DNA of 64,000 bases, taken from the NCBI GenBank assembly GCA_002354095.1, contig DEKX01000037.1, positions 66,525-130,524 on the forward strand. Reading direction: 5' to 3'. The position numbers and the translations under genes were made by a program. Positions within the stretch are counted from its first letter, which is position 1, and every line of letters starts with the position of its first letter. The DNA is from Prevotella sp. UBA2711 (lineage in GTDB: Bacteria; Bacteroidota; Bacteroidia; Bacteroidales; Bacteroidaceae). Below are positions 14,772-40,133 of this stretch, one piece after another. The notes under the pieces were generated by a model. That model was not told where the DNA came from and made no database searches. It was given only the letters and a program-made list of their open reading frames with translations.

Positions 14772-14790
14772 ATTATAACATTAAATAATT

Positions 14791-15114: not shown

Positions 15115-15132
15115 ACAACAGAACGTCTGGAA

Positions 15133-17104: not shown

Positions 17105-17121
17105 CCTGTATCTTACGCTAC

Positions 17122-17158
17122 AATGAAGGCACTCCAAAGTAGAGTGCCTTCATTTTTT
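17122..17158. terminator. Bidirectional intrinsic terminator
   Basis: Perfect 13-bp stem AATGAAGGCACTC/GAGTGCCTTCATT between convergent genes, with a T tail on +. Confidence 0.85.
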
Positions 17159-17162
17159 ATGA

Positions 17163-22408: not shown

Positions 22409-24464
22409 ACTTCACTTTCAGTCCTACGACAAGCATACGCCCTGGTGTGTAAAGGGCATACTTACGATTAGCAGAATCTATCCTACAGTCAACTCGGTCG
22501 AAGATATTATCAACACCGATGCTGGGCTGTAGGATAATTCGTTTCAGACCATCAAAGGTATGAACGGTGTGGAGGTTCCACACGCCAAACCCTGGAGCAT
22601 CTTCGTAAGTAGTATAGTAGGTTTTCGACTGCAACTTACCATTCAGATTGACATGCAGCGAATAGTGGCCCCAACGGTGGTGATAGTTGGCTGCAATAGT
22701 GGCTGCATGGCGGATGCTGCGCTCCATCATGGTCCATTCTTCATCCGACTTCGTTCGAGCATAGGTATAGACATAATTAGCCGACAGGTTGAAACCCTGG
22801 AACAGATTGGCGGAAACATTCATCTGCAATCCCTTGACATCTCCCAAATCACTGTTCTGATAGCGTGAGTAACGTTCCAGTTTTCCTGCTTGATCATCTG
22901 TCATCTCAGGAAACTCCTGACGGAGCATTTCCAGCGATGTACCATCAACAGGAATATCCTGACGCACCACCATATCGTTGATGCGATTGAGGAACCCCGT
23001 CACACTGACAGCCAACAAATCACTACGGTATTCGGCATTCAGCGACACATAATGACTACGCTCAGCCTTCAAATCAGGATTTCCGAAAATAATCTGTGCC
23101 TTACCACGGTTGACGGAAAAATAGCGATAATAGATTTCGTCAAGTCCTGGCGCACGGAATCCTTGCGAATAGGTTGCACGGAAACGGAAATTGCCTGGTG
23201 CATACATCAGAACTGCCTTGGGCGAAAACTGATTGCCAAAAGTCTCGTGATGCGTATAGCGCAATCCTACCGTTACCGTCAGGTCGCGAAGGAGCCGATG
23301 CTCATGCTGGGCGTATGCCGCCAATGTATAGGCATGCTGATGGATATCGCCTGAGGTAGCTGTCAAATAGTCTTTTCTGTAATTGGCGCCCAGAATGGTC
23401 GTGCTACCTTCCACCAGTCCAAGAATGGCTTTCATTTCGCCCTCCATTGTGCGTTGTTTCTTCGACTGCACATAATCTCCCACAGCATACTTTTTGGTAG
23501 CTACGTCATACTCTTTACCATAACGGAAACGATCGACGGTGAAATTGGCCTGCAAGGAATTCTTGGCAGTAAACTTATAGATTCCACCAATATTCCAGCG
23601 AAGTCCTTTGTACCGCATTTCGTAGTCTGTACCGCCAGTAATATCCTCACGTGTCTCTGGACGATTGGTTATCTTATAGTAATAATCCATACCCGCATTC
23701 AAGGCTAAATGCCGATTGGGGGCATAGGTAAACTTCTGACCGACGATGTTGGAGCGATAGCCAGTAAAGAAAGGAGCTATCGTCTGCTGCGTTTCCGTGT
23801 CTGAACCTTTCACAAATTCCAGGTTATTATTCTGATAACTGTCCGCACGGTCGTGAGCAAACGAAGTGTAAGAACCGAAACCATTCTTATAGATATCGAG
23901 ATTGATGCTTTCTGTCAGAATACCGTGCCCGCTGACCTTTGTCGTGTTGGTAACACTACATACGGAATTGGTGGGCTGATCGGTAATGATGTTGATAACA
24001 CCTCCTATGGCATCGGAACCATAAAGAGAAGAGGCTGCTCCGTCGAGAATCTCGATGCGCTTGACCCGCGCCATATTGATGCGGTTCAAATCTACATTAT
24101 TAGAGATATCGCCTGAGAGCTTCTGTCCATTCATCAGAATCAGAATATATTTATTACCCAGTCCGTTCAGGCGCAGGAAAGTACCCATCGAGTTAGGAGC
24201 CATAGATGCCTGAGGCATCATGCGTGTCAATGCCTCATCAAAGGTCGTAATGCCTTGCTCACTGATTTCCTGAGCCGACAACACATGCACGGGGGTAGCC
24301 GTTGACTTCAGACGCTGATGGTGACCAGAGCCTGTCACGACGATAGGGTTCAGATTGTACGTGCGCTTCACTTGGGCGGAATCGCTGTTATCTGTCTGAT
24401 GAATTTGAGCCTGTCCTGACAGACAGAATGTCAAAAGACTGGCTACGAATATCTGTTTCTTCAT
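22374..24464 (-). CDS. TonB-dependent receptor (BtuB-like), second copy
   Basis: [32 protein letters not shown], barrel strands, GVDNIFD..PGR C-terminus. Confidence 0.9.
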
Positions 24465-24485
24465 GAAAAAGAGTTTAATGGAAAG

Positions 24486-24513
24486 GGAGATGCAGTCTCA
24501 CGACTACACCTCC
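24486..24513 (-). terminator. Intra-operon hairpin/terminator between the CbiK-like gene and the second receptor
   Basis: 12-bp stem that closes on the minus strand with two G-U pairs (GGAGGUGUAGUC/GACUGCAUCUCC) and a short U run. Confidence 0.55.
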
Positions 24514-24549
24514 TTTGTACAACTTATATAATAATACATCTACAATTGA

Positions 24550-25713
24550 TTATTCGGATGCCGTTGTAGGAGTTGACATAGCAGCGTCAGTTCCCAACTT
24601 CTTGATAGCATCACTTGTGTGCTTCTTCCAAAGGGCACGAACAGCACTGCGCTCTGCAAGACCTGGGATATAACCATTAGCCTTAATCTCAGCGGTGTTC
24701 TTCCAGCAAGCCTCGGTGAAGTTGGTTTCGTAGGCGGCTGTCTCTATATCAGCCTTATTGAACAGTGAGACCCAGCTCTCGGGGTCTTCCTCGTCAGCCA
24801 TATCGTTGTGAGCATGGTCACCGGCAATTGACATCAGCACAAAGAGCTGAGCCTTCTTGGCATTGTTCTTTTCATAGTTAGCGGTGTAGCCCATCGCACC
24901 CACCTGATAATCAAACTTGCCACCGCCAATGTGAGCCAACACATCCTCGGCATAGGTTTCAGCCATATCCACCGTACCTACATAATAGTTCTTGTTGATG
25001 GCACGCAGGGCGTCTTCCAACTGCAAGTAGCGAATGTTACCGCCATAGTAGTCGTAACCCTCAGGATTACCGTGTCCCATAAAGGCAACGATACCCTCTC
25101 CAACAGCAGCCTTCACGTCGGCTTCATCGTTCAGAACCTTAGCGAGGTTTTCTGCGTCGCTCTCCTCAGCCATCAGCGGTGTACCTACTACCACCTGACG
25201 GTCGATGCTCTTCATGTAGTCATCAGTGAAGTCGCCGTTACGGTTGTTCATGAAGTCCTTCACATAGCTGTCACGAACACGACGGTACTCCTCACCAGGA
25301 ATCACCTGCAACGACTGGACTACTATCTGCTTGTAGCCAGCCAGTCCGATAGCTGTCAGGAAGTGCTCTGGGTCGTAGAAGTCGCGAGGTTCCACATTCT
25401 CACCGGCACGTGCCTGATTGATGCAGATAGCACTTGAGAAAGAGAGGAATACATCCCAACCGGAGAAACTGGCTTTGTAGTCTTCCACCACCTTTTCGAA
25501 GGTGTCGTAGGCCTGCTCCCAAGTTGAACCGAAGGCTACTACCAGAATAACCTTGTCGTTCTTCTTCTGAGCATTGACAATTGCATTGACGGCCTGCTGA
25601 TATTGGTCGTACTTAGAAGGGGCCGTCTTGTTGTCATCATCACCACAAGCAGTAAATGTGGTACACACTGTGATTGCCATCAGGGCAATCAGCAAAAACT
25701 TAATTTTCTTCAT
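24550..25713 (-). CDS. CbiK-like cobaltochelatase lipoprotein (IhtB-like)
   Basis: Lipobox TAC-GDDD; ILVVAFGS, FMGHG and LMSIAGDHAHNDM retain both chelatase histidines. Confidence 0.85.
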   Translation of the reverse strand: MKKIKFLLIALMAITVCTTFTACGDDDNKTAPSKYDQYQQAVNAIVNAQKKNDKVILVVAFGSTWEQAYDTFEKVVEDYKASFSGWDVFLSFSSAICINQARAGENVEPRDFYDPEHFLTAIGLAGYKQIVVQSLQVIPGEEYRRVRDSYVKDFMNNRNGDFTDDYMKSIDRQVVVGTPLMAEESDAENLAKVLNDEADVKAAVGEGIVAFMGHGNPEGYDYYGGNIRYLQLEDALRAINKNYYVGTVDMAETYAEDVLAHIGGGKFDYQVGAMGYTANYEKNNAKKAQLFVLMSIAGDHAHNDMADEEDPESWVSLFNKADIETAAYETNFTEACWKNTAEIKANGYIPGLAERSAVRALWKKHTSDAIKKLGTDAAMSTPTTASE

Positions 25714-27826
25714 TGTTTCTTTGATTTAAGTTACGTTTATATTTGTTAGTCAATTTCTTACCTTTATTGAATCGTAGGGTCAGCGAGGCATAGACGGTAG
25801 TGCCTGGCGTGGTGGTGCCGAGATGGAGCCCGTGAGGGGTCTTATCAATATAGTTGAAGATGTTGTCGATACCCGCCTCCAGTCGCAGATTCTTACCAAA
25901 CTGGTGGGTGGTGGACAGTCGCCAAATCTGATAGCCCTTGCCATCTCCGTCTATCTGGTAATAGCGCTTGGTGGACATGCGTCCATAAATGCCAAGTCCC
26001 AATTGGTAGTGTTTCGAGAAATCGCGGTTCCATGTGGCATACCAGTTGGCTTTGTGGTGAGCCATACCGTCTATCGTCACTTCACGCATCACCTCTTTAT
26101 CCGTATCATACTGGTGGGCTTTGGTGTCCAGATAGCTATACGAGCCTCCAAAAGTAAAGTGCTTGGTCTGGTAGCGCGCCGTGAAGTCGATGCCATAGGT
26201 CTTGGCATCCTCCATGTTCTGATATTGGCGCACGCGCTTGGGGTCATACTGCACGATGAGGTCGCCCGGTGCCTCACTCGTAGGAATCGTCACCAGTGCT
26301 ATCATATTGTCCACCTTATTATAATAACCAGAGAGCGTCAGCGTCAGGTTCCCTATGGTATATTCAGCACTCAGTCCGAAATAATTGGAGGTTTGTGCCT
26401 TCAGGTCGGTATTGCCTAAATAGAGATACACCCCACTCATATTACGGATATACTGATAATGCAGTTCCTTGGGCGTGGGTGTCTTATAGCCCTGGCTCCA
26501 GGTGGCACGCAGTCGCCAGTCGTGCAGTTTCAGCATGGCTGAGAGTTTAGGCGTCAGACGGGTGCCGAAGCCCTCATTGCGTGTTAATCGCAGACCGCCA
26601 GTAATGTGTGCAGCGATTCTGTCGCTGCACAGCCAACGCCACTCGTCCTGCACATAGAGAGCCTGCGTATTATCCGTTGCCTTGCCGCCCTTCACGCGCA
26701 TAGGAGCTTCAAGCCAGTCGTAACGATAGTCGAAGCCTGCCGACAGGGTCTGCTCGTAGGGCAGCGCAAAGACGCCCTTCAGCGAGATGTGCGTCAATTG
26801 CTGATCGCTCTGCAACTCCTTATCACCAGGGAAATAAGGATAATAGTTCGTAAAGTGCCCGTTGACATAACCATCGGTCAGTGTCGTATCCGTATAAACG
26901 TATTTATAGGCATGTCTCTTCCAATCGGCATCCAGCGTAATGACATCCGTTGCATTGAGTTTCCACTTACCCCCAACAGAGGCAGAGGCATTATTGTATT
27001 GCAGGTCGTAGGTCCTGACATCCACCCCGGGGTGATGTCCGCAAGGGCGATAGATGCGCTTCCAGTAGATACTGCCGTCGGCATAGAGTTCTATCTTCGG
27101 TGTAAGCTGATAGGTCAGATGCTCCGCCACCTGCCAGTTCGTATGCCGGTTGGTCGTTTTATTACGTGAATCAGTGATGTGGTATTCCGTCTGCGAAATA
27201 GCCTCTTCGCTGGTGTTCTGCCAACCGTCAGAATGCTGCAGTTGAAAGTTTGTATATGACGACCACTTGCCATAGTTCAAGGCAATACCGTTATGCTGAC
27301 GAATGTCACCATACGAACCGAATCGCGAAGTATTCTCCAGCATCACGCCCTGTTCGCGGTGCTTCTTGGTGATGATGTTAATCACACCTGCAATAGCATC
27401 CGAGCCATAGAGCGCCGACGAAGCACCCTTCACGATTTCTATCTTCTCAATGTTGTGAGGGTCGATGAGCGAGAGGTCGTTTTCGCCACCATTGTCACCA
27501 TGCAGTCTTCTGCCGTCTATCAGGATGAGCACATACGAGTTGCCCAGACCGTTCATCTGCAAATGCGAACCCATATCGTTCTCGTTGAAGGCAAACGAAG
27601 CCGTCAGACCTCCGAGAATATCCTCGATACTCTTGCCTGCATACTGTCGTAACTGCCTGCCGCTAATGACCTCCGTCTGCACGGGGGCATCCTTCAGCAG
27701 GTGCTGGGTGCCTGTACCTGTCACCACCACCTCCTGCAAACTGTCAGCACGCAACACATCTTTCTGTGCAGATACGCCAATAGCCAACAGCCAACAGCCA
27801 ATAGCTAACACTATTTTCTTCATCAT
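25700..27826 (-). CDS. TonB-dependent receptor (BtuB-like), first copy
   Basis: EVVVTGTGT, IEIVKGASSALYGSDAIAGVINIIT, GIDNIFN; directly below the cobalamin riboswitch. Confidence 0.92.
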   Translation of the reverse strand: MMKKIVLAIGCWLLAIGVSAQKDVLRADSLQEVVVTGTGTQHLLKDAPVQTEVISGRQLRQYAGKSIEDILGGLTASFAFNENDMGSHLQMNGLGNSYVLILIDGRRLHGDNGGENDLSLIDPHNIEKIEIVKGASSALYGSDAIAGVINIITKKHREQGVMLENTSRFGSYGDIRQHNGIALNYGKWSSYTNFQLQHSDGWQNTSEEAISQTEYHITDSRNKTTNRHTNWQVAEHLTYQLTPKIELYADGSIYWKRIYRPCGHHPGVDVRTYDLQYNNASASVGGKWKLNATDVITLDADWKRHAYKYVYTDTTLTDGYVNGHFTNYYPYFPGDKELQSDQQLTHISLKGVFALPYEQTLSAGFDYRYDWLEAPMRVKGGKATDNTQALYVQDEWRWLCSDRIAAHITGGLRLTRNEGFGTRLTPKLSAMLKLHDWRLRATWSQGYKTPTPKELHYQYIRNMSGVYLYLGNTDLKAQTSNYFGLSAEYTIGNLTLTLSGYYNKVDNMIALVTIPTSEAPGDLIVQYDPKRVRQYQNMEDAKTYGIDFTARYQTKHFTFGGSYSYLDTKAHQYDTDKEVMREVTIDGMAHHKANWYATWNRDFSKHYQLGLGIYGRMSTKRYYQIDGDGKGYQIWRLSTTHQFGKNLRLEAGIDNIFNYIDKTPHGLHLGTTTPGTTVYASLTLRFNKGKKLTNKYKRNLNQRNNEEN

Positions 27827-27877
27827 TCCTAATTTTCCGCAACGCATATCCCTGTACGCGCGTACCTATAATATTAT

Positions 27878-28071
27878 ATTGGCAGGTCTTCTGACTTTCC
27901 TCAGCCTGTTCTACCTTCCCGACTATACCGTCAGTGGCGTTATACGAACAAGCCTCTTAAACGAGGATTACAGCAGCAGGTACTGTTCAGGACTTTCACC
28001 TGATTCCCTTACATCAGGCACCATTCGAGTGCCAGATTGCCTAACAGCGAACATCGTCACGACTCAGCCAA
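27878..28071 (-). ncRNA. Cobalamin riboswitch
   Basis: Minus strand AAGGGAATCAGGTGAAAGTCCTGAACAGTACCTGCTGCTGTAA...GCCACTG...GGGAAGG...AGTCAGAAGACCTGCCAA; a TTGGC/GCCAA closing stem; promoter TAACTTTG at 28123-28130. Confidence 0.93.
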
Positions 28072-28204
28072 ACGTGCCAGCACGATGGCATTCGCAGCTC
28101 CGATATTTGCCATTTTCGAGTGCAAAGTTACGAAAATATGAGCGAAAAGCCAAAGGAAAGCAAACTTTTCTTTGGCTTTATTGAGAAAAAAGTATAAGTC
28201 ACAT

Positions 28205-30334
28205 TTAAATGATTCTAACACACATCATCGTTAGATCGTCGTTAGGCTCGGCACCCTTGCGATGTGCTTCTACTGCAGCACGGACTGTATCGATGGTCTG
28301 GCAGGCCGAGTCATGCTGGGTATTACGTATAATGTCTATCAGTCGGTCATCACCAAACTGTTCTTGCTGCGGGTCTTCAGCCTCATTGAGTCCGTCAGTA
28401 TAGATAAACAACTGTTGGTTCTTGATGCTGTCAATTTCTTCGCCCTCATAATCAAGACCAGGGAATAGACCGATGGGAGCATTGGCCTCCATTTCCAGGA
28501 ACTCGCAGTTGTGGTCGCCGTTTCCAATGACAGGAGGGTTATGCCCTGCATTGCAGAAGTAAAGATGACCTGTCCGGAGGTCGGCAAGTCCAATCCAGAA
28601 CGTCACAAACATACCGTTCTCATTGTCGTTTCCACTGAGTGCATCGTTCATACGCGTACAGATTTCTGCAGGCATCATGCCCTGCTTGGCCATAGTCAGG
28701 AACAGGCGAGTGGCTTGAGCCATAAACAACGAGGCAGGTACCCCCTTACCACTGACGTCGCCGATAGCGAAATAGAGTTGGTTGTCCATTAACAGATAGC
28801 CGTAGAGGTCACCGCCTACCTCTTTCGCCGGGGTCATTGAGGCAAACATGTCCAGCCTGTCGTGCTCAGGGAAGATGCTGGGAACCATTGACATCTGAAT
28901 GTCACGGGCCACACGTAGCTCAGACTCTATGCGTTCCTGCAGGGCTTGCATCTTGGTGATGCGGCGTTGGTAGATGGTGTAGATAGCAAACGACAGCACC
29001 ACCAGGGCGAGCACCACCATCGTGGCTATCCACCACAGACGGGTCAACGATGCTTCTTTCTGGGCTATCAGTGCCTCCTTGCCCTGCGTGTCGTAGATGG
29101 TGGCCAGCTCTAAAGCATCGCTATTGCGCCAGCGAACAATAGCACTGTCTAAAACGCCGCTGATGCTGTCTGCCATCAACAGGGCTTTCGGGCTGTTGGC
29201 GAGGCCCCGCCAAGCTCTATATTGAGGAACGAGTATTTGATTGATATCTTCGAGTGAAAGCTGAGACGGATCGAAGGCTGTTGAGTCGAGTTTGTGGAAC
29301 ATGCCAATGACCTCCTGCCAGTGGCCGGTTTCAAGCAGAAACTGACCGCACTCCCTTATATCCTTTGCCTTTAGTGAAACCACATCGTCAAGACACGGCA
29401 GGAAAACCTGATATGCCTCATCCGCCCTGCCCTGATGGTGGAGCAGGCGCGCCTCGGCTAGTGCCATTGCAAAAGTATGCCGACGATACATGGAATTGCT
29501 GATATCGACATGCTCCTGCAGCTGGCGGTAGTTATCCCGGGCTATGGGAAACCACTTGCCGGCCTTGTCGTATTGCTGCTGGTCGATGTAGGAAAGGGTA
29601 GCTTCCTCTGCGGTATTCACCTTCACCTCCATGAATGTCGTGTCGCTGTCGAGACTCTCTCCGTCAATAAACAGCAGCGATTGATTACGTTCGTATGAGT
29701 CTATCGCTTCACGGTAATGCTGGTCACCCTCGTCGTAACGTCCCAGCTCTACCAAACAGTTGCCCATCGTGGTATAGAGACTGGAAGTGGAGCTCGGCAG
29801 CAGCATGAGGGTGCTCGACTCATGGGCCTTGATGACTTCCATGGCGGGCATCAGCACCTCCAGTGCCTCAGCGTAGTCGTGTCTTTCTGTCAGCAGCCGC
29901 GACAAGAACATGACACTGTGAGCGTAGGTTGTCAGTTCTGGTTCATCACCCGAGAACGCCTCAATGGACTTTCTCAACTGAAACTCCGCCGCCTTATATT
30001 GTTTTTGCATTTTATAGGCTGCGGCATGAAAAAAGTGAAGGTCTGTCTTGAACACCTTCGTACGTCCTTCAAGGCTGTCGCACACCACGTGGACAGAGTC
30101 ATAGTTCTTGCGGTTAAACTGAGTGGTTATCAGATTCAAGTCATACTCTTGTTCGTCGTAGATATCAACCTTCAGGACGTGCTTAAGAACTGGGAGAAAT
30201 TTTTCATCAAACAGCTCGGGTGCTATCCAGTTGGCAATCTCCAGTAACAAGAACAGTCCCACAATCAGCGTCACGGGAAATCCTATTCCCCATAGCAGCA
30301 GGCGCTTTATCCATTTCTTGATGCTTTTACTCAT
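28205..30334 (-). CDS. Membrane-anchored TPR sensor with SpoIIE/PP2C phosphatase domain
   Basis: TM, helical TPR-like region and second TM; then ARDIQMSM, VGGDLY, IGDVSGKG, NAGHNPP, YTDGLNEA, NDDLT. Confidence 0.9.
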   Translation of the reverse strand: MSKSIKKWIKRLLLWGIGFPVTLIVGLFLLLEIANWIAPELFDEKFLPVLKHVLKVDIYDEQEYDLNLITTQFNRKNYDSVHVVCDSLEGRTKVFKTDLHFFHAAAYKMQKQYKAAEFQLRKSIEAFSGDEPELTTYAHSVMFLSRLLTERHDYAEALEVLMPAMEVIKAHESSTLMLLPSSTSSLYTTMGNCLVELGRYDEGDQHYREAIDSYERNQSLLFIDGESLDSDTTFMEVKVNTAEEATLSYIDQQQYDKAGKWFPIARDNYRQLQEHVDISNSMYRRHTFAMALAEARLLHHQGRADEAYQVFLPCLDDVVSLKAKDIRECGQFLLETGHWQEVIGMFHKLDSTAFDPSQLSLEDINQILVPQYRAWRGLANSPKALLMADSISGVLDSAIVRWRNSDALELATIYDTQGKEALIAQKEASLTRLWWIATMVVLALVVLSFAIYTIYQRRITKMQALQERIESELRVARDIQMSMVPSIFPEHDRLDMFASMTPAKEVGGDLYGYLLMDNQLYFAIGDVSGKGVPASLFMAQATRLFLTMAKQGMMPAEICTRMNDALSGNDNENGMFVTFWIGLADLRTGHLYFCNAGHNPPVIGNGDHNCEFLEMEANAPIGLFPGLDYEGEEIDSIKNQQLFIYTDGLNEAEDPQQEQFGDDRLIDIIRNTQHDSACQTIDTVRAAVEAHRKGAEPNDDLTMMCVRII

Positions 30335-30619
30335 TTCTTATGTCGTATATGTATGGTTAAGAAAATGGCTCATACCTGTATATTTGCCGAATTTTACTTT
30401 TTCGGATACAAAAATAGCGTTTTTTTTTAAACTTTGGATTGGCTGGGCAAATAATCTGATGACAGGACGCCTATATTTAACGTTTATTTGGAAAAGTTTA
30501 AAAGTTGGCTTACCCTAGAAAAGGTTGGCTCATAGAAAGTCAACATTTCTACTATGTATATGAGACGAGTAGTTCGCTCTAAAAAAGGGCTATTGCCCTC
30601 ACAAGGATTTTTCATTTTT

Positions 30620-30706
30620 AATATCACAATATCACCAAATTGGGATTGAAGACCGATGGACAAAGGGATTGAGCTTGGTGATATTAGTGGTGATATTGGT
30701 GATATT
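30620..30706. repeat. Inverted array of GGTGATATT nonamers (2 reverse + 3 forward)
   Basis: aatatcac at 30620 and aatatcacc at 30628; ggtgatatt at 30677, 30689 and 30698. Confidence 0.75.
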
Positions 30707-30714
30707 ATCCGCCC

Positions 30715-30750
30715 GTATTTAACAAATTTATGCCAAATTGCGATAAATAT
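30715..30750 (+). repeat. 36-bp direct repeat, copy A
   Basis: GTATTTAACAAA-tttatg-CCAAATTGCGATAAATAT; 33/36 identical to copy B. Confidence 0.85.
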
Positions 30751-30763
30751 TTTGGTGAATCTA

Positions 30764-32524
30764 TCAGAACCTCCAGGCTACGCCCGCCAGCAGTGCCGAG
30801 AGCTTCGAGTAGAACATGTCGTGCCATTGCAGGTGGAAGTCCCAGTGGTCAAATATCTGCTTGTTTGCCTGCAGCGAGCCGTAGAACGCCGTATTGTCCA
30901 TCATGGCACGGCGGGGCGCATTGGCAGAGAACCATACCAGACGGGCCGAGGCCTGCCAACCACCGGACAGACTCACCACAGGCACCAGGCGTACATCAGC
31001 AAAGGTGGTGCTGGGTGTGCCGTTCATGGAGAGACGGCAGACATCGAAACCGCCCGTCAGCGCCAGGATGCCGAAACGCGTGTAGACGACACCACCGATG
31101 GTCCAATAGTCGTCAGACTTGTCGGTATGGTAGATGCTGCCCGTCAGCGAGGCATTGAAGCGGCGCGTACCATAATTGTAAGCCAGTTTGTATTGGTCAA
31201 TCTTGGTTTCCTCGAGCAGTGGATTACCAGCAGTGAGTTTGCCTGCCGCATTGGGCCAGGCAGCAGGAAACAGCCCCAAAGCTGATGGGTGGCGGAACTT
31301 ACGGTAGTAAGCCGCCTGCAACTGATGACCGCCAGGCAGACGGCATATAGCACTGGCCTGGAAGTGGTAGCGCGTGTCGTTCTTGGACCAGTCGTTGCCA
31401 TAGTCTTTCTGCTGGTAGTGATAGAACATGACGCGAGAGCCGGCGGTAAGTCGCAGCGGTCCCACAAGGTAGTTCAGTTGCAGATAGATGTCGTTGTTGA
31501 TGACATGGAGGGTGCTCTCTTCGTCGAAGGCACTGCCATCCTCCAGGGGACTTTGGCTGATGCCATAGCGCTGGAGGTCGAAATCGCCCTCGTAGCCCAG
31601 CATCATCGACAATCCTTTGACGGGCAGCGGGGTGTTGAGTTCGAGCATAACCATCGGTATGTTGGAGCGTTGCTTCAGGCGGCGACAGGCCTGATCGGAG
31701 ACATTCATCACGTCGCTGGGCGAAGTTTTGTGTTGCCATGAGAGCAAGGTGAGCAGTTCGGTACCTGCATCGTTGAACGTATGGAACCAGCGGAAGCGGG
31801 CCATGAAAGACTCGTTGCGATTGTGCTGCGAGGTGCCGTCAGTGCCTGCGTCACTCACCGCCGATGACTGCGTGACATAACTCAGCAGGCGGTCGCGTGA
31901 TGACAGGCGGCTGGTCATTTGCAGGTGAAGGTGCTCGGCATTGTTCACCGTACCGCGCAGGTCGCTGTGCGTATAGTCCACCGTACCCCAGAGGTCGGTA
32001 TGCTGATTGCCATAGTGCAACTGGGCTGACGGTGCCAGCAGGTGGTCGGTGCCACCCTGCATCGAGACCTGTCCGTGAGCGCCCTTCTCAGCCTTCAGCA
32101 GGTTTATGTCTATGACGCGCCCGTCACCATTACGCCCTTTGGCCACGCCCGCATTGTCGCATATCTGGACCTTGCTGACAAGGCGTGCCTTAATCTGGGT
32201 GAGTTGCAGGCGCAGGTCGCCGCTGACAGCCACGTTGTCTATGCGCAACTGCCAGCCGTCGAAAGGGCTCGCACCTTGCAACAGGTCGTCGAAACCTGCC
32301 GCCATCAGGTCTGGATACATATCGAGGATATCCATCAGCGTCTCCTCGCCACTCAGTTCCATGCGTTGCGGATATATTAAGGTACGGTCGCCCCGCATTT
32401 CCACCACAGGTTGCTCGGTGTCAGGGGCTGCCGCGCATGCCACGCCTGCCGTCATCAGGGATATCCATAGGATTGTTGCTCTCGCAATCTGGCTCATCAG
32501 CGTCACATCGGGCAATTTTGTCAT
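30764..32524 (-). CDS. Outer-membrane beta-barrel protein with plug-like N-terminus
   Basis: Signal peptide, TLMDILDMYP, RVIDINL, alternating strands, C-terminal VAWRF. Start moved to 32524, below the -7 box at 32550-32557. Confidence 0.75.
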   Translation of the reverse strand: MTKLPDVTLMSQIARATILWISLMTAGVACAAAPDTEQPVVEMRGDRTLIYPQRMELSGEETLMDILDMYPDLMAAGFDDLLQGASPFDGWQLRIDNVAVSGDLRLQLTQIKARLVSKVQICDNAGVAKGRNGDGRVIDINLLKAEKGAHGQVSMQGGTDHLLAPSAQLHYGNQHTDLWGTVDYTHSDLRGTVNNAEHLHLQMTSRLSSRDRLLSYVTQSSAVSDAGTDGTSQHNRNESFMARFRWFHTFNDAGTELLTLLSWQHKTSPSDVMNVSDQACRRLKQRSNIPMVMLELNTPLPVKGLSMMLGYEGDFDLQRYGISQSPLEDGSAFDEESTLHVINNDIYLQLNYLVGPLRLTAGSRVMFYHYQQKDYGNDWSKNDTRYHFQASAICRLPGGHQLQAAYYRKFRHPSALGLFPAAWPNAAGKLTAGNPLLEETKIDQYKLAYNYGTRRFNASLTGSIYHTDKSDDYWTIGGVVYTRFGILALTGGFDVCRLSMNGTPSTTFADVRLVPVVSLSGGWQASARLVWFSANAPRRAMMDNTAFYGSLQANKQIFDHWDFHLQWHDMFYSKLSALLAGVAWRF

Positions 32525-32633
32525 GGCAAAATAGTTTAGAAGTATTTGGCAAAGATAAGAATTATTTTTCAAATTTGCAAGTTTACTAAAGAATGAATTC
32601 ATTATTGTATGTGCATCAGGGAGTGAACTGCTT

Positions 32634-32669
32634 GTATTTAACAAACTTTTTCCAAATTGCGATAAATAT
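32634..32669 (+). repeat. 36-bp direct repeat, copy B
   Basis: GTATTTAACAAA-cttttt-CCAAATTGCGATAAATAT. Confidence 0.85.
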
Positions 32670-32736
32670 ATTGGGAATTCAGAATAATTGATTATCTTTG
32701 CAAACGAAACAAATATGGGCAAACGAAATAAGGAGG

Positions 32737-33996
32737 ATGAATAATGGTTTCCTGATAGCAGCACCTATGAGCGGCTCTGGCAAAACAACTGTTGCCAGAG
32801 GGCTGATGGCATTGCTGACGGAACAGGGACATACGGTGCAACCCTTTAAGTGCGGACCCGACTATATCGACACAAAATTCCATGAAGCGGTTTGTGGGCG
32901 CCCCTCGGTGAATCTTGATACGTTTATGGCTACGCCTAAGCATGTGAGGGCGCTCTTCGAGCACTACAGCGAGGGGGCAGACGTGAGTATCGTGGAAGGT
33001 ATGATGGGGCTCTTCGACGGCTACGACCGCGACAGAGGCTCTTCGGCAGAGGTAGCGCGCGTATTGGATATCCCCATCGTGCTGGTAGTCGATGCCAAGT
33101 CGGCAGCTTATTCAATGGCAGCACTGTTGACGGGTTTCCTCCATTTCCGTGACGATATTCGTTTTGCGGGCGTGATATTTAATAAGGTGGGGTCGGAGCG
33201 TCATCTCCAGATGCTTCAGGATGTATGCGACGACCTGCATATTTCGTGTCTGGGCTATGTGAAGAAGAACGCTCAACTGGAACAAGGCTCCCGTTACTTA
33301 GGGCTCGACTTCTCCCAACAGACAGGGCGGCAGGAGCTGTTGGATTGTTTCCATAGTTCCCTGCATTTATTCCCAAGGTGGGAATGTTTTATTCCCAAGG
33401 TGGGAACATTTCATTCCCAAGGTGGGAATATTTTGTCCGCAACAAGGGGACTACGCGTGGCTATGGCTCGAAACAGCGAAAGCTTCAGTTTCGTCTATCA
33501 AGAGACGCTTGATTCTTTGGGCGAAATTACCTACTTCGACCCAGAGAAGGACGTTCCCCAACTCACCGACATTGACTTACTCTACCTGCCCGGTGGGTAT
33601 CCTGAGAAGCATGCCGAGGCACTTACCAAGAACGAAGCCTGTCGCCAAGCCATTCGCGATTATGCCGAACGGGGCGGTCGCATCGTGGCTGAGTGTGGGG
33701 GCATGATGTATCTCTGTCAGAGCATCATGACCGACGAGGGGGAATATCCGATGTGTGGCGTTCTGCCCTACAAGATTTCGGCACGCAAGGCTGACCGCAA
33801 GCTATCGCTGGGCTATCGCCGCTTTGAACTGGGCGGCAAGGAGTATCGTGGACATGAGTTCCACTACAGTCAGTTTGTGGGCGAAACGCCCCCTTCCGTC
33901 ACCCAGGTCTATGACGCCAAGGGACGCCCCGTTGCCACCCCTGTGTTCAAATATAAGAATGTATTAGCCAGTTATACTCACCTCTATCCGCTATGA
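32737..33996 (+). CDS. cbiA: Cobyrinate a,c-diamide synthase
   Basis: SGSGKTT, FKCGPDYID, EGMMGLFDG, AECGGMMYL, HEFHYS; -7 box at 32693-32700. Confidence 0.95.
   Translation: MNNGFLIAAPMSGSGKTTVARGLMALLTEQGHTVQPFKCGPDYIDTKFHEAVCGRPSVNLDTFMATPKHVRALFEHYSEGADVSIVEGMMGLFDGYDRDRGSSAEVARVLDIPIVLVVDAKSAAYSMAALLTGFLHFRDDIRFAGVIFNKVGSERHLQMLQDVCDDLHISCLGYVKKNAQLEQGSRYLGLDFSQQTGRQELLDCFHSSLHLFPRWECFIPKVGTFHSQGGNILSATRGLRVAMARNSESFSFVYQETLDSLGEITYFDPEKDVPQLTDIDLLYLPGGYPEKHAEALTKNEACRQAIRDYAERGGRIVAECGGMMYLCQSIMTDEGEYPMCGVLPYKISARKADRKLSLGYRRFELGGKEYRGHEFHYSQFVGETPPSVTQVYDAKGRPVATPVFKYKNVLASYTHLYPL
33369..33434. repeat. Three tandem 22-bp palindromic units inside cbiA
   Basis: ATTCCCAAGGTGGGAA at 33369, 33391 and 33413. 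Confidence 0.9.
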
Positions 33997-35444
33997 AACA
34001 ATTACACCCCTTGATGCTGGCAGGAACAGGCAGCGATGTCGGTAAGAGCATCGTTGCGGCGGCTTTCTGTCGCATCTTCCTGCAAGACGGCTATCAGCCT
34101 GCCCCTTTCAAAGCCCAGAACATGGCGCTCAACAGCTATGCCACCCCAGAGGGTTTGGAGATAGGGCGCGCTCAGGCAGTACAGGCAGAGGCAGCCGGTA
34201 TTCCCTGTCATACGGATATGAACCCGCTGCTCTTGAAACCTCAGAGTGACCATACGTCGCAAGTGGTACTGCATGGCAGACCGATTGGCAATAAGAATGC
34301 GTATGAATATTGGAGGAAGCACACTGGTGAGATTGACTTCCGTCAGGAGGTGTGCGATGCTTTCGACCGACTGGCAGCACGTTACAACCCTATAGTGATG
34401 GAGGGGGCTGGCAGTATTTCGGAAATCAATCTGCGCGATACCGATTTGGTGAATCTGCCGATGGCACGTCATGCCAAGGCTGATGTCATCCTTGTGGGCG
34501 ATATTGACAGGGGTGGCGTTTTTGCTTCCGTCTATGGCAGCATTGCCTTGCAGACGCCTGAGGACCGCCAACTCATTAAAGGCATCATTATCAACAAGTT
34601 CCGTGGCGATTTGCGCCTTTTCGAAGAGGGACGGCACATGCTGGAACAGATTTGCGGTATTCCCGTATTGGGGGTTATCCCCTACTTGAAGGATATCCAT
34701 ATCGAAGAGGAAGACAGTGTGGCATTGGCTATGAAAAGTTCAAAGTTCATAGTTCATAGTTCAAAGGTGAACGTGGCAGTCATCATGTTGCGCCACATCA
34801 GCAACTACACCGACTTCAATGTCCTGGAACAGGACCCACGCGTACACCTGTTCTATACCAATAATGTGGATGACATCCGCCAGTCGGACATCATCATCCT
34901 GCCAGGCACGAAATCGACCCTCAACGACCTCTACGAACTGCGCCGCAACGGGTGTGCACAGGCTATTATACAGGCTCACCGTGAGGGGGCTGTGGTACTG
35001 GGCATCTGTGGCGGTTACCAGATGCTGGGACAGGAGGTGAGCGACCCGCAGCATGTGGAGGGCGACATCGAGCGACTGCCTGGTCTGGGGCTTCTGCCTA
35101 TCACTACGACAATGGAGGGTGAGAAAGTGACGCGACAGACGGAATTCCTGTATCATGGACAACTGCTGAAGGGTTACGAGATTCACATGGGACAGACGAC
35201 TGCCCCACCCGATGGCGGATATGTCTGGGAGGGTCATCACTGTCTGGGAACGTATATTCACGGCATCCTCGACAATGCTGCCTTCATCAACCGACTATTG
35301 GAGCCCTTTAAGGAAAAGATACAGGAACGCACCAGCCATTTCGACTACCAGACCTACAAGGAAGAGCAATACAATCGCTTGGCTGAGCATGTGCGCCGAC
35401 ATGTAGATATGGACAAAATCTATGAAATACTGACCCATGACTAA
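33993..35444 (+). CDS. cobQ: Cobyric acid synthase
   Basis: GTGSDVGKS, PFKAQNMALNS, VMEGAGS, GICGGYQMLG, GYEIHMG. Confidence 0.96.
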   Translation: MKQLHPLMLAGTGSDVGKSIVAAAFCRIFLQDGYQPAPFKAQNMALNSYATPEGLEIGRAQAVQAEAAGIPCHTDMNPLLLKPQSDHTSQVVLHGRPIGNKNAYEYWRKHTGEIDFRQEVCDAFDRLAARYNPIVMEGAGSISEINLRDTDLVNLPMARHAKADVILVGDIDRGGVFASVYGSIALQTPEDRQLIKGIIINKFRGDLRLFEEGRHMLEQICGIPVLGVIPYLKDIHIEEEDSVALAMKSSKFIVHSSKVNVAVIMLRHISNYTDFNVLEQDPRVHLFYTNNVDDIRQSDIIILPGTKSTLNDLYELRRNGCAQAIIQAHREGAVVLGICGGYQMLGQEVSDPQHVEGDIERLPGLGLLPITTTMEGEKVTRQTEFLYHGQLLKGYEIHMGQTTAPPDGGYVWEGHHCLGTYIHGILDNAAFINRLLEPFKEKIQERTSHFDYQTYKEEQYNRLAEHVRRHVDMDKIYEILTHD

Positions 35445-36366
35445 ACTGCTGGCTCTACTTTTCGGATGGATTCTCGACCTCCTGCTGGGCGACCCCGCAT
35501 GGCTGCCCCACCCCGTTGTAGGGTTCGGCAAAATGATAGCCTTTGGAGAACATCGGCAGAACAAGGGAACACACAGAAAACTGAAAGGAGCCGTCTTAGC
35601 CATCGGACTGATTCTGGCAACTTTTGCAGCCACATGGCTCTTATTATATGCTATTTCAAAACTCCCCTCGCCTTTAGGAGAGGGGTTGGGGGTGAGGCTT
35701 CTCCTCATCTTCTTCTGTTTAGCAGGCACCACCCTCATACGCGAAGTCCGTGAGGTATTCCTTGCCCTTGACCGTTCACTGGAAGAAGGGCGCAGACAGG
35801 TGGCACGCATCGTGGGGCGCGACACCTCCGAACTCTCTGCACAGGAAGTGCGTACGGCTGCCCTGGAGACGTTAGCCGAGAATTTGAGCGATGGCGTTAT
35901 CGCTCCCCTCTTCTGGCTGGCATTATTGGGCGTGCCCGGTATGGTGGCTTATAAGATGGTGAATACGCTTGACTCCATGATAGGCTATCGCACGGAGCGC
36001 TATCGGGAGTTCGGATGTTGGGCGGCTCATATCGATGATATTGCCAACTACATCCCTGCCCGTCTGACGGCTTTGCTGATGATTATCGTTGCAGGCAGAC
36101 CATGCCTTGCCGGTTTCGTATGGAGGAACGGATGCCGACATGCTTCACCCAACAGTGGCTATCCTGAAGCAGCCTTAGCAGGCATCCTCAACTGTCGCTT
36201 TGGAGGTCCGCATTACTACTTCGGTGAACTTTTCGACAAACCGTTTATCGGCGAGAACGACAGAGCACTCACCACCGAGGACATGAAAAAAGCCATCCGT
36301 GTGAATCGAATGGCTGAGGTCTTGATGGTCGTATTGGTAGGGCTATGCGCCTGGTTGGGCTACTAA
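35437..36366 (+). CDS. cbiB: Adenosylcobinamide-phosphate synthase
   Basis: GDP..PHPVV, IVGRDT, AENLSDG, NTLDSMIGY, SPNSGYPEAA. Confidence 0.96.
   Translation: MTKLLALLFGWILDLLLGDPAWLPHPVVGFGKMIAFGEHRQNKGTHRKLKGAVLAIGLILATFAATWLLLYAISKLPSPLGEGLGVRLLLIFFCLAGTTLIREVREVFLALDRSLEEGRRQVARIVGRDTSELSAQEVRTAALETLAENLSDGVIAPLFWLALLGVPGMVAYKMVNTLDSMIGYRTERYREFGCWAAHIDDIANYIPARLTALLMIIVAGRPCLAGFVWRNGCRHASPNSGYPEAALAGILNCRFGGPHYYFGELFDKPFIGENDRALTTEDMKKAIRVNRMAEVLMVVLVGLCAWLGY
35662..35697. repeat. REP-like hairpin element in frame in cbiB (PSPLGEGLGVR)
   Basis: CCCCTC-GCCTTTAGGA-GAGGGG then TTGGGGGTGAGG. Confidence 0.7.
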
Positions 36367-37140
36367 GCATACCACCACGAGATAGACGGTCAATTCCACC
36401 AACAGGCAGACGGCTCCACAACAGTCGCCTGTATATCCGCGAAGCCTATTCCATATCAGCAGGTAGAGGAAATACATCACCAATCCCGGGAGGAAAATAA
36501 TATACTCCCACGAGAGGCCCGTCAGATATAGAAAACCCACCATCGGAAGCAAACCCTGAATGGCCAGACTGACACCTGCCAAGGGCTGAATCTTGCGATA
36601 GACGGTTTTCGACTTGGCCTCTTCTTCCCTGCGGGCATAAGGCATCATGATAATCAGTTGACTCGTCACCATCTTGCTATAAGGGTCGGCAGCCAGTATA
36701 GCCAAAGCCGCTATCTCTGTGGGCATGGAATAGAGGGTTGCCACCAACAGCAACTCATAGAGTATCAGTCCTAACACGCCATAGGTACCGATATGCGAAT
36801 CCTTCATGATGTCAAGAATACGCTGGCGGTCTCTGCCTCCTCCACCGAAGCCGTCCAGAAAATCAGCCAACCCATCCTCATGCAAGGCTCCCATCAGCAA
36901 CAGACGCACCACCACGGCTGCAATGACAGCCAGCAGATGGGGCAGCAACATACTGCCGAACCATAGTGTGGCAGCCATCGCTCCACCTGTGAGCCAACCA
37001 GTCAGGGGCCAATGTTCCACAGCTGCCTGATAACACTCCTTAGGCGGCTGATGCAGTCGCCAGAAAGGCAGTCGGGTAAAGAAGATAAAGGATGCCCAAA
37101 TGCGGTCGTACCATTTCGTCTGATCAATACTTACTTCCAT
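36343..37140 (-). CDS. cobS: Adenosylcobinamide-GDP ribazoletransferase
   Basis: FFTRLP, GALHEDGLADFLDG, MKDSHIGTYG, GYTGDCCGA. Confidence 0.96.
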   Translation of the reverse strand: MEVSIDQTKWYDRIWASFIFFTRLPFWRLHQPPKECYQAAVEHWPLTGWLTGGAMAATLWFGSMLLPHLLAVIAAVVVRLLLMGALHEDGLADFLDGFGGGGRDRQRILDIMKDSHIGTYGVLGLILYELLLVATLYSMPTEIAALAILAADPYSKMVTSQLIIMMPYARREEEAKSKTVYRKIQPLAGVSLAIQGLLPMVGFLYLTGLSWEYIIFLPGLVMYFLYLLIWNRLRGYTGDCCGAVCLLVELTVYLVVVCLVAQPGA

Positions 37141-37145
37141 CTCGT

Positions 37146-38171
37146 TCAGAAATATTTTGTGATTGCTGCATTTTGAAAGTTATTCATCTCGTTCATCATG
37201 CGCACCGCACTGTCCACGATAGGGAAAGCACAAAGTGCACCAGTGCCCTCGCCCAAACGCAGGCCCAGCTTCAGAAGGGGTTTCACTTGCATGGCCTCCA
37301 ACATCAGTTGATGGCCTGACTCATCGCCACAATGGGTAAATATCATGTAGTCCTTGCTTTTAGGCTCCAAGTGTATAGCAGCCAGTGCACAGGCTGTCAT
37401 GATGAATCCATCTACCAATATCACGAGGTGTTGCTCTGCCGCACGAAGCATCGCGCCTACGGCTGCTATCATCTCAAAGCCTCCGAAATAGGCTAAAGGA
37501 TTGTCATGCTGATAGTTGGCAAGAGCCTGCGAGAGTACTTCGTACTTATGACGAATGCCTTCGGAATTAAGTCCTGCACCTGCACCGATACAGTCTTTAA
37601 GGGGTATATGACAGAAGAGGTGCATCCAGATGCTGGAGGGCGATGTATTGGCAATACCCATCTCACCAATACATAGCACGCGACAACCTTCCTTCACGCA
37701 CTCGTCCACCAAGTCGGCACCAATGGCGACGGCTTCATCGAACTGTTCTTCTGTCATGGCTGGTTCATGCAGGAAATTGCCTGTGCCACGCGCTATCTTT
37801 CTGTCGATGATACCGTCTATATGACTGAGGTCGTAGTCAACACCCACATCCACAATGCGCAAATGGAAACCATGCTGTCGGCAGAACATATTGACGCCTC
37901 CTCCACCTCGTGTGAAGTTAATCATTTGTTGCCAGGTGACTTCCCGTGGTGACACACTGACACCCTCACGCTCTATCCCATGGTCGCCTCCCAATAACAA
38001 GTGACAGGGATGAGCCAACGAAGGCGATAGCGTCTGCTGTATCAGGCACACCTGCATGGCCAACTCTTCCAAGCGTCCCAACGAACCCTTAGGTTTGTTC
38101 AGATTGTCTATCTTTTCTTGTATCTGAGGGCGCATGGCCTCGTCAGGTGATGTTATCTTAAACTGTTTCAT
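37146..38171 (-). CDS. cobT: Nicotinate-nucleotide:DMB phosphoribosyltransferase
   Basis: KPKGSLGRLE, GEMGIANTS, DGFI, LRLGEGTGA. Confidence 0.96.
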   Translation of the reverse strand: MKQFKITSPDEAMRPQIQEKIDNLNKPKGSLGRLEELAMQVCLIQQTLSPSLAHPCHLLLGGDHGIEREGVSVSPREVTWQQMINFTRGGGGVNMFCRQHGFHLRIVDVGVDYDLSHIDGIIDRKIARGTGNFLHEPAMTEEQFDEAVAIGADLVDECVKEGCRVLCIGEMGIANTSPSSIWMHLFCHIPLKDCIGAGAGLNSEGIRHKYEVLSQALANYQHDNPLAYFGGFEMIAAVGAMLRAAEQHLVILVDGFIMTACALAAIHLEPKSKDYMIFTHCGDESGHQLMLEAMQVKPLLKLGLRLGEGTGALCAFPIVDSAVRMMNEMNNFQNAAITKYF

Positions 38172-38674
38172 TTGATCTTTACTGGTATGCCACTGACCAT
38201 CAGCACGACCTCATCGGCTTGCTGGGCAATGTATTGGTTCATCCATCCTTCCAAATCGGTAAACTTCCGTTGGATGGCATTCTCACTGACACCACCACTG
38301 CCTATCTCGTTGGTAACAAAGATATAGGTGGCATCAGGAGCCGTGAAACGATTGAACTCCTCCTTGGCGGCTTCGAGGGTTTGGGCTACATCCGACGTCT
38401 CGAAAAAGAAATTGGTAAGCCAAAGGGTTACACAGTCTATCACCACCACTCTACCCGTCAGGTCATGACGACTCAGAAACTTTTCTTCTTCGATATTCGT
38501 CCATTGGGGACCTCGTCGCTCTTGGTGCTTCTTCACGCGCTCACGAAATTCGTCATCCCAGATATGGGCAGTAGCCAAATAGACGGGATGGTCCGACAGA
38601 CTCAAAGCCAACTGCTCTGCCTGTTGACTCTTCCCTGAGCGTTGTCCTCCTGTTATCAGAATAATTCGTTTCAT
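38168..38674 (-). CDS. cobU: Adenosylcobinamide kinase / guanylyltransferase
   Basis: ITGGQRSGKS, YLATA, HQERRG, DCVTLWLTN, VTNEIGSG. Confidence 0.95.
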   Translation of the reverse strand: MKRIILITGGQRSGKSQQAEQLALSLSDHPVYLATAHIWDDEFRERVKKHQERRGPQWTNIEEEKFLSRHDLTGRVVVIDCVTLWLTNFFFETSDVAQTLEAAKEEFNRFTAPDATYIFVTNEIGSGGVSENAIQRKFTDLEGWMNQYIAQQADEVVLMVSGIPVKIK

Positions 38675-38694
38675 CTTTTTGTAGTATTTTGCTG

Positions 38695-38721
38695 CAAAAT
38701 TAATCATTTTTTGTAACTTTG
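38695..38721. promoter_or_regulatory. Back-to-back -7 boxes of the divergent cobU and cbiH operons
   Basis: TAATTTTG (minus, 38695-38702) and TAACTTTG (plus, 38714-38721) in a 55-bp gap. Confidence 0.6.
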
Positions 38722-38729
38722 CACACAAT

Positions 38730-40133
38730 ATGAAGAAAATAATCGTTGCAGGAATCGGTCCAGGTAGTCCGCAGGATATTACACCTGCTGTGATGGAGGC
38801 CGTCAGAGAAGCTGATGCCGTTGTAGGCTATAAGTATTACTTCCAGTTTGTTGAATCCTATCTGAAACCTGGGTGTGAATGTATTGACACAGGTATGAAA
38901 CGGGAAAGCGAACGGGCAGAGCAGGCTTTTGCGCTGGCTGAAGAAAACAAAACGGTGGTGGTCATTTCCAGTGGTGATGCCGGCATCTACGGCATGGCTC
39001 CCCTCATCTACGAGATGAAACTGCAACGAGATTCGGATGTAGAGATTACAACCCTGCCGGGTATTTCTGCTTTTCAGAAAGCAGCATCCCTTCTCGGGGC
39101 TCCTATCGGTCACGACACCTGCATTATCTCACTCTCCGACTTGATGACACCCTGGGAGGTGATAGAACGGAGAATCGAGGCTGCTGCCATGGGCGATTTC
39201 GTCACTGCTATCTATAATCCCAAGTCGCACGGTCGCTATTGGCAGCTGTATCGCCTACAGGAAATATTCCTGCAGCACCGTGCTACTGGCACACCCGTCG
39301 GCTATGTCCACCAGGCTGGTCGCGAAGAGGAAATTGTGAAAGTCACCACCCTGAAGGATTTCAATCCTGAGGATGTGGATATGTTTACCGTCATCATCAT
39401 CGGTAACTCGCAATCGTATATAGCCGATAGCAAGATGATTACTCCCCGTGGGTATTATAGGAATCAGTCTGAACCGACAGGCAATAAGATTGGACAAAAT
39501 ATCATGATGGAGTCTTTCCGCACCATCAAGAATGAACTGAGCCGACAGGACTATCCGTTAGACCATCTGTGGGCGCTGCTGCATGCCATCCATACCACAG
39601 CCGACTTTGATATGGAGCGCATTCTCCATACTGACGAGCATGCCGTGGCATCATTATTTAATAAGGTGAAGGACGGAACGCTGAAAACTATTGTGACGGA
39701 TGTGACGATGGTGACCAGTGGTATCCGCAAGGGAGCCTTAGAACGGTTGGGTATTACGGCTAAGTGTTATCTGAGTGATGCCCGGGTGGCTGAGATGGCT
39801 GCCCAAGAGGGTTGTACAAGAACACAAGCGGGTATCCGACTGGCTGTAGAGGAGCATCCCGATGCGCTCTATGCCTTTGGCAATGCCCCAACAGCGCTCA
39901 TGGAACTCTGTGAACTGATTCGCAAGGGTAAGGCTCACCCTGCCGGCATCATTGCTGCCCCTGTGGGCTTTGTGCATGTCAGGGAATCCAAACACATGGT
40001 AAAGCCGTTCCACGATATCCCAAAGATTATTGTTGAGGGCAGAAAGGGAGGCAGTAATCTGGCTGCAACACTATGCAATGCCATTCTGACTTTCGACGAT
40101 GCCGAACAACTAAAACCTGGACGCGATTTATGA
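38730..40133 (+). CDS. CbiH(CobJ)-CbiC(CobH) fusion: C17-methyltransferase / precorrin-8X methylmutase
   Basis: GIGPG, ISSGDAGIYGM, ISLSDLMTPW, TPRGY; then HTTADF, GNAPTAL, GRKGGSNLAA. Confidence 0.93.
   Translation: MKKIIVAGIGPGSPQDITPAVMEAVREADAVVGYKYYFQFVESYLKPGCECIDTGMKRESERAEQAFALAEENKTVVVISSGDAGIYGMAPLIYEMKLQRDSDVEITTLPGISAFQKAASLLGAPIGHDTCIISLSDLMTPWEVIERRIEAAAMGDFVTAIYNPKSHGRYWQLYRLQEIFLQHRATGTPVGYVHQAGREEEIVKVTTLKDFNPEDVDMFTVIIIGNSQSYIADSKMITPRGYYRNQSEPTGNKIGQNIMMESFRTIKNELSRQDYPLDHLWALLHAIHTTADFDMERILHTDEHAVASLFNKVKDGTLKTIVTDVTMVTSGIRKGALERLGITAKCYLSDARVAEMAAQEGCTRTQAGIRLAVEEHPDALYAFGNAPTALMELCELIRKGKAHPAGIIAAPVGFVHVRESKHMVKPFHDIPKIIVEGRKGGSNLAATLCNAILTFDDAEQLKPGRDL

Follow-up and report, generated by a model that had tools for sequence, protein, structure and literature searches.

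The window analysed here is a 64,000-nt stretch of the Prevotella sp. UBA2711 genome (GCA_002354095.1, contig DEKX01000037.1, positions 66,525 to 130,524 of the forward strand), in which a gene for a 586-aa outer-membrane beta-barrel protein (30764–32524, minus strand) is bracketed by two copies of a direct repeat, R1 on the left and R2 on the right. The gene lies in a slot between two vitamin B12 loci. On the left, the slot is anchored by the cobalamin riboswitch (27864–28059, minus strand) of a btuB-type TonB-dependent receptor operon, followed by a gene for a SpoIIE-type (PP2C) phosphatase with tetratricopeptide repeats (28205–30334, minus strand). On the right, the anchor is cbiA (cobyrinate a,c-diamide synthase, 419 aa; 32737–33996, plus strand), the first gene of the cbiA-cobQ-cobD operon. 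The barrel protein possesses a signal peptide, beta-barrel matches to PF00593/PF14905, and a C-terminal Phe, has no plug domain, and receives no name from NCBIfam. The GC content of its gene is 57.5%, compared with 47.1% for the genome and 50–53% for the neighbouring genes, which suggests a foreign origin. The region between the btuB operon and cbiA has at least four structural alleles. In our reading, given a probability of roughly 0.55, it is a strain-variable slot in which R1 is an ectopic copy that arrived within a 230-bp block, and not the attachment site of the barrel gene.

A repeat search of the window recovers the direct repeat as 41 nt with 37 identical positions (90%), R1 at 30715–30755 and R2 at 32634–32674, both on the plus strand and 1919 bp apart from start to start; with gaps allowed in BLAST, the similarity covers 55 nt at 85%. 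R1 forms the right end of the 230-bp block and is situated 9 nt 3' of the barrel-gene stop codon, whereas R2 is resident at the locus, 5' of cbiA. Over the first 36 nt, 33 positions agree, and the mismatches at positions 13, 16, and 18 lie in a 6-nt variable block with identical arms of 12 nt and 18 nt on either side. The first-pass annotation of the window had described two 33/36 repeats 1919 bp apart with all mismatches confined to the central 6 bp between conserved arms. The repeats are indeed found at that place, and the confinement holds over 36 nt, a fourth mismatch being located beyond it, at position 37 of 41 near the 3' end. Two matches appear in none of 100 shuffled versions of the window, and the repeat is real rather than a product of chance. 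No third copy exists in the whole 3.12-Mb genome, including for the 18-nt arm at up to two mismatches; with two genome copies, the possibility of a common operator spread genome-wide, which the annotation itself had raised against its proposal, is rejected. Furthermore, an exact-pattern scan of the GTDB representatives (185,579 species) gives no match, a looser 19-base pattern gives six matches in those representatives, scattered over unrelated phyla and close to the chance expectation, and neither the repeat nor the palindromic element described below is found in viral contigs. The repeat is unique to one locus in one species.

The structural alleles were obtained from metagenome and Logan contigs whose flanks are 96–99% identical to the window. 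Allele C, represented by 24 contigs (L037, L071–L079, and 14 similar ones), contains the phosphatase gene, a 199-nt spacer, the barrel gene, R2, and cbiA, and lacks 30525–30754. Allele A, found in the window, L067, L070, and contigs of runs X2 and X8, is allele C with the 230-bp block added. In allele D (L068 and L093), the phosphatase gene is replaced by a C10-peptidase gene with its own terminator, followed by the palindromic element, a spacer (ATCCGCCC), a single repeat copy, and cbiA. In allele E, comprising 11 contigs (L069, L080 with four similar ones, L090 with two similar ones, L091, and L092), the phosphatase gene is connected to cbiA by a different 93-nt spacer, and the barrel gene, the element, and the repeat are all absent. 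The A-type contigs L067 and L070 carry R1 without a change, and the 24 C-type contigs lack it. R2, together with the promoter stretch extending to 32724, is 98.9–100% identical in all A, C, and D contigs. When allele E is the reference, it is the upstream region of the phosphatase gene and the start codon of cbiA, not the repeat, that delimit the gene-bearing segment. In trees of cbiA, the barrel gene, and the phosphatase gene, contigs of different allele types intermingle, which agrees with recombination among strains of the species. In G008, which is another species, the receptor gene directly adjoins cbiA, and these alternative contents, including the direct adjacency, mark the slot as a flexible locus.

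The 230-bp block (30525–30754) occurs in allele A only, with ends defined to within 1–2 nt owing to a G run. In L037 and L071–L079, window position 30524 is joined directly to about 30755, and the intergenic space between the phosphatase gene and the barrel gene is 199 nt in C-type contigs against 429 nt in the window. A unique 66-nt stretch, the palindromic element, the spacer ATCCGCCC, and R1 make up the block. In the core of the element (30606–30706), AATATCAC/AATATCACC arms are placed opposite three GGTGATATT units, with a conserved loop between them. The element is intergenic and has 7–8 copies in the genome, its presence is polymorphic, as shown by its absence from C-type strains, and the copies share the core only, not the whole 230-bp block. 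The core alone is also present in five other species of the genus, never together with the repeat. Being multi-copy, palindromic, intergenic, and polymorphic, the element beside R1 qualifies as a repetitive extragenic palindrome (REP) or an element resembling miniature inverted-repeat transposable elements (MITEs). Copies of the family lie shortly 5' of promoters and are oriented alike; the one preceding a DUF6078-primase gene pair on contig C46 is an example. Folding R1 with the element as DNA or RNA reveals nothing beyond the palindrome (z-scores −0.7 to −1.6).

In allele C, the junction reads TTACCCT-AGAAA-AGGGTAA, which on the gene strand gives a perfect hairpin of 7–8 bp. It starts 6 nt beyond the stop codon, and a U-rich tract comes after it; the predicted fold (L071:5255–5320) has an 8-bp stem at −9 kcal/mol. 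One arm and the loop of this hairpin, intact in allele C as UUACCCUU-UUCU-AGGGUAA, are located at 30510–30524 on the minus strand of the window, where the block splits the structure. The block of allele A sits within an arm of the C hairpin and supplies its own hairpin and U6 tract, an intrinsic-terminator-like GAGGGC-AAUA-GCCC + U6 at 30581–30600 on the minus strand according to the predicted fold, which would end the barrel-gene transcript in allele A. Metatranscriptome contigs of run X15, from bovine rumen, cover the barrel gene and run through R1 to the palindromic element. The homology of the window to allele D begins at 30591, inside the hairpin of the block.

One version of the cbiA promoter appears to have R2 as its upstream half, with the −33 box inside the repeat. 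The Bacteroides promoter consensus is a −33 TTTG, a gap of 19–21 nt, and a −7 TAnnTTTG. The candidate cbiA promoter, read by eye against this consensus, comprises TTG at 32671–32673, the last bases of R2, then 19 nt and TATCTTTG at 32693–32700, upstream of the ATG at 32737. A candidate promoter of the barrel gene, CTTG, 20 nt, and TATCTTTG, can be read between the repeats at 32550–32581 on the minus strand, in agreement with the annotation, which had placed the gene and its own promoter between them. A sigma-70 promoter scan is uninformative for Bacteroidota. The stretch 32534–32633 is 100% identical in all 12 contigs that contain it, against 96.4% for the barrel gene itself in most of them. 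The divergent promoter region as a whole (32534–32724) is 98.9–100% identical in 12–13 contigs, compared with 96–98% for the flanking genes, and this conservation suggests either strong constraint or a recent sweep of the intergenic segment. An Rfam scan of 24000–40000 at E ≤ 1 detects the btuB riboswitch at 27864–28059 only and nothing 5' of cbiA; the same scan rules out that the repeat derives from a cobalamin riboswitch or from some other known RNA. The cbiA-cobQ-cobD operon, unlike the adjoining receptor operon, has no detectable cobalamin riboswitch (32525–32736), and in E-type strains, cbiA is driven from the wholly different 93-nt spacer.

These structures can be arranged into a sequence of events in which whole intergenic segments would be exchanged or lost in the slot through ordinary recombination. 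In allele D, the palindromic multi-copy element directly precedes the repeat. In allele C, the commonest gene-bearing allele, the barrel gene is closed by its own terminator hairpin, with no repeat on the left. Allele A would then have arisen by insertion of the 230-bp block, with its 66 nt including the terminator, the element, the spacer, and a repeat copy, into the C hairpin. Since a hairpin of this kind is unlikely to be created by chance through a deletion, allele A is read as allele C plus an insertion, and we infer the direction C to A. The right part of the block (element, spacer, and repeat) matches the region upstream of cbiA in allele D, so R1 is best explained as an ectopic copy, and the direct repeat would be a by-product of copying an element together with a promoter-upstream segment. 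Accounting for the extent of the homology, its left end in R2, at 32634, would mark where alleles C and D begin to differ upstream of cbiA, and its right end in R1, at 30754/5, would be the stop of the copied block. Once present, the 41-nt repeats could mediate loss of the 1.9-kb segment. Allele D would be what such a loss left behind, the crossover falling within the first 12 nt, or else it would be related to the block's donor.

In two assemblies (L068 and L093), allele D lacks precisely the 1919 bp that lie between the repeats of allele A and has a single repeat copy. This difference is compatible with a deletion between R1 and R2, with an older D-like allele that also served as the source of the block, and with integration at the repeat. 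The single repeat of allele D is of the R2 type at all four variable sites, and its element is 98% identical to that of the window (3 of 140 positions differ). On the left, the homology of the window to allele D stops at 28049, within the cobalamin riboswitch; since the left gene of allele D differs and the homology resumes only at 30591, more than one event separates D from A.

Several points weigh against the reading of R1 as an ectopic copy. The case for C to A made from the hairpin is a matter of probability, a hairpin arising by chance being estimated at about 1/100. R1 and R2 differ at 4 of 41 positions, against 2–4% in the flanks, and this excess indicates that the donor of the block was not the present R2 but carried an R1-type variant; no donor with the R1 variant, whose centre is TTTATG, or with the unique left part (30525–30590) was found. 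The difference between A and D is exactly repeat-bounded, as a site-specific event would also produce. Moreover, the sequencing runs were viewed as assembled contigs, in which rare excision products are invisible, and 23 of the C-type contigs do not count as independent strains, having been retrieved with a single exact protein sequence.

The same observations can be turned around, with allele A or a D-like allele as the older one. The gene and its promoter would have entered an element–repeat–cbiA site at the repeat, the incoming DNA carrying an R-like stretch and leaving the hybrid repeats R1 and R2, while C would have arisen by deletion of the block and D would be untouched. Such a history would yield the exact, repeat-bounded 1919-bp difference in two assemblies and the agreement of the repeat in D with R2 at all variable sites, as expected of an unoccupied site; the high GC content of the barrel gene (57.5% vs 47.1%) hints at a foreign origin, and the D element falls within the variation among A-type elements. 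It is nevertheless an unlikely history, as it needs a deletion that creates the perfect terminator hairpin of C by chance. In addition, C and E are far commoner than D, and the left side of D, with the C10 peptidase in place of the phosphatase gene, calls for at least two events anyway. Homologues of the barrel gene (40–90% identity) in other genomes occur in unrelated contexts without an R-like flank, and the closest homology ends at the stop codon. A cassette moved by a site-specific recombinase is still less probable. The first-pass annotation had proposed a dif-like module of a tyrosine recombinase, in which XerC/D or a related enzyme acting in trans at R1 and R2 would insert or excise the gene as a cassette; the matrix scores, dyad symmetry, allele boundaries, and recombinase location do not support it, and it is rated very improbable here. 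Its appeal lies in the identical arms around a variable 6-nt block, in the presence of two XerC/D-sized tyrosine recombinases in the genome, on contigs C1 and C11, and in the proposal by Krupovic and Forterre of dif-like integration of integrase-less microviruses in Prevotella (PMC3091885). An empty site does exist, as the annotation had anticipated, because L068 and L093 carry the element, the spacer, exactly one repeat copy, and cbiA with 1919 bp missing; however, a single-repeat site has ordinary explanations, and recombination between the repeats gives the same product. Counting confirms that ATTTAACAAA agrees at 9/11 with the E. coli XerD arm in reverse complement, a match of little weight, with 907 genome sites at 9/11 or better. 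Published dif predictions for Bacteroidetes (Kono 2011) share an ATAA-N6-TTAT core (PMC3025954 supplement). On a matrix composed of six Bacteroidetes dif predictions and E. coli dif, the best scores are −3.9 bits for R1 and −1.3 bits for R2, whereas 39 genome sites exceed 14 and the top site reaches 21.8. The dyad symmetry of the repeat (11 + 11 arms with a 6–8-nt spacer) is 7/11 at best, no higher than in shuffled sequence, since R1 shuffles average 6.7 and 58% of them reach 7.

The distribution of the repeat and of the recombinases likewise tells against a cassette. The repeat has two genome copies only, its matches in the GTDB representatives are at chance level, and the viral contigs contain none. 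The central blocks of R1 and R2 differ at three of six positions, and such central-block differences usually block full strand exchange. Most strains carry the gene without R1; the annotation had named relatives with the gene but no repeats, and the lack of an empty site, as the outcome that would speak against its cassette, and this is largely the pattern found, with 24 contigs holding the gene and R2 only and 11 having neither gene nor repeat. Its other suggestion, an insertion with a long duplication, comes closer to the truth, although the inserted unit is the 230-bp block and not the gene. The contigs of three DNA runs, which drop rare variants, contain no repeat-to-repeat, backward, or circle joint. 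A search with PF00589 finds five tyrosine recombinases in the genome, on contigs C1, C11, C28, C9, and C19, and none on the 131-kb contig of the window (C24). A function for the second copy has also to be considered, in which the repeat is the operator of a DNA-binding regulator and R1 was kept to co-regulate or insulate the barrel gene and the cbiA operon. The 98.9–100% conservation of 32534–32724 against 96–98% in the flanking genes, the identity of R1 in all A-type contigs, and the plausibility of a protein regulator for a cbiA without riboswitch would agree with an operator, but two genome copies amount to no regulon, no −7 box follows R1, which lies downstream of a gene, R1 is missing from most strains, and E-type strains lack any copy. 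An operator is improbable on these grounds; being a matter of function, it is compatible with the origin of R1 as an ectopic copy. A further proposal, that an unrecognised trans-acting recombination system targets the repeat and that the element with the repeat is a portable promoter/terminator module moving between loci, is a long shot. If true, strains could switch a barrel or a C10-peptidase surface protein in and out beside their B12 genes through a cassette system that lacks its own recombinase and whose sites are unlike dif.

Other candidates for mobility were rejected. An integrative element with its own tyrosine integrase has no integrase gene within or beside it in the PF00589 search. 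A transposon or insertion sequence with target-site duplication is contradicted by repeats of 41 nt that are only 90% identical and by a 1.9-kb unit without inverted ends; the unit between the repeats contains the barrel gene only. The genome's own dif was also sought by the matrix, but the matches are unconvincing, and no ATAA-N6-TTAT core is present on contig C27 at the one site where the XerD arm matches exactly.

There are both similarities and differences between this locus and known systems. As in flexible loci and recombination hotspots, conserved anchors (the riboswitch-btuB and cbiA operons) enclose alternative genes in strains 96–99% identical, and the allele types do not follow the phylogeny of the flanks. 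As in repeat-mediated deletion, one pair of alleles differs by the DNA between direct repeats with one repeat left; however, the 41-nt repeats, with a longest identical run of 18 nt, are short for RecA-dependent exchange. In the case of REPs, bacterial interspersed mosaic elements, and MITE-like elements, the likeness lies in the palindromic core of about 100 nt with 7–8 copies, its intergenic location, its occurrence in several species, and its polymorphism. Neither a transposase nor a target duplication longer than GG is evident here, and, unlike in classic REPs, copies occur in pairs that flank a DUF6078-primase module on both sides as 112-nt inverted repeats. Integrative mobile elements exploiting Xer and pdif modules, such as CTX-phi, the Acinetobacter pdif modules, and the microvirus proviruses of Bacteroidetes (PMC3091885), are DNA without an integrase moved by XerC/D. 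The barrel gene resembles them in the lack of its own recombinase, the imperfect direct repeats whose arms agree while the centres differ, and the single-site empty allele, but the repeat has neither the 11-6-11 dyad architecture nor the ATAA-N6-TTAT core (PMC3025954) and scores below background. The locus looks like an ordinary strain-variable slot for surface-protein genes and a new example of known phenomena. A plausible-looking recombination cassette is cleared, and a flexible locus of an uncultured-type rumen Prevotella is documented in its stead, in which surface-exposed proteins, a plug-less barrel and a 1479-aa C10 peptidase, alternate between the operons for vitamin B12 uptake and synthesis. 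In addition, a small palindromic element with ties to primase modules is seen to be present in some strains and absent from others. The description is useful for the annotation of Prevotella pangenomes and for the study of REP/MITE-like elements in Bacteroidota; it involves no new mechanism.

On contig C46 (G000) at 14768–17565 (L040:1268–4065), two copies of the palindromic element form 112-nt inverted repeats of 95% identity around a DUF6078 gene and a BT4734-N/VapE/DUF3874 (VirE/VapE-type) primase gene. The same inverted pair is present in a second species (G299:C14:1988–4753), 2.6 kb apart. With its flanks, the gene pair has the look of a self-contained unit that ends in long inverted repeats and lacks a transposase or an integrase. 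A second REP-like palindromic family (GAGTGCACTCCAGTAAAAAATGGAGTGC...) is located at C50:175170–175240, C8:53745–53810, and at least 15 other sites on many contigs, sometimes directly after the first palindromic element. An R-like tail after the element copies on C50 and C8, about 70% similar over 35 nt, was rejected as a further copy of the repeat, since it belongs to this other family of at least 15 copies. In contigs of three runs, window position 30703, the end of the element, is joined to 33390, with 30 nt on one side. The 33390 side of the joint consists of 22-bp palindromic units that are also present inside cbiA; the joint links two repeat families, probably at another genomic locus, and was rejected as an excision.

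The D-type slot protein (L068:1825–6264) is 1479 aa long and contains a Spi-inhibitor prodomain and a C10 (streptopain-like) peptidase domain, together with BspA-type leucine-rich repeats and an Omp28-like region. A homologue of the barrel gene with 90% identical DNA (L038:2150–2260) lies in another context, beside a lipoprotein gene, and has a tandem duplication of about 42 nt over the region of the stop codon. Decay occurs within the slot, as in the A-type barrel gene of L070 (3903–5269), which has an internal deletion of 439 nt (window 31868–32306), and in the E-type phosphatase gene of L069 (7767–9897), which is split into reading frames of 248 aa and 471 aa. The N-terminus of CbiA has two variants, MNNGF in the window and L068, and MKSQF in L037, L069, and L093 (window 32740–32748), which segregate independently of the structural alleles.

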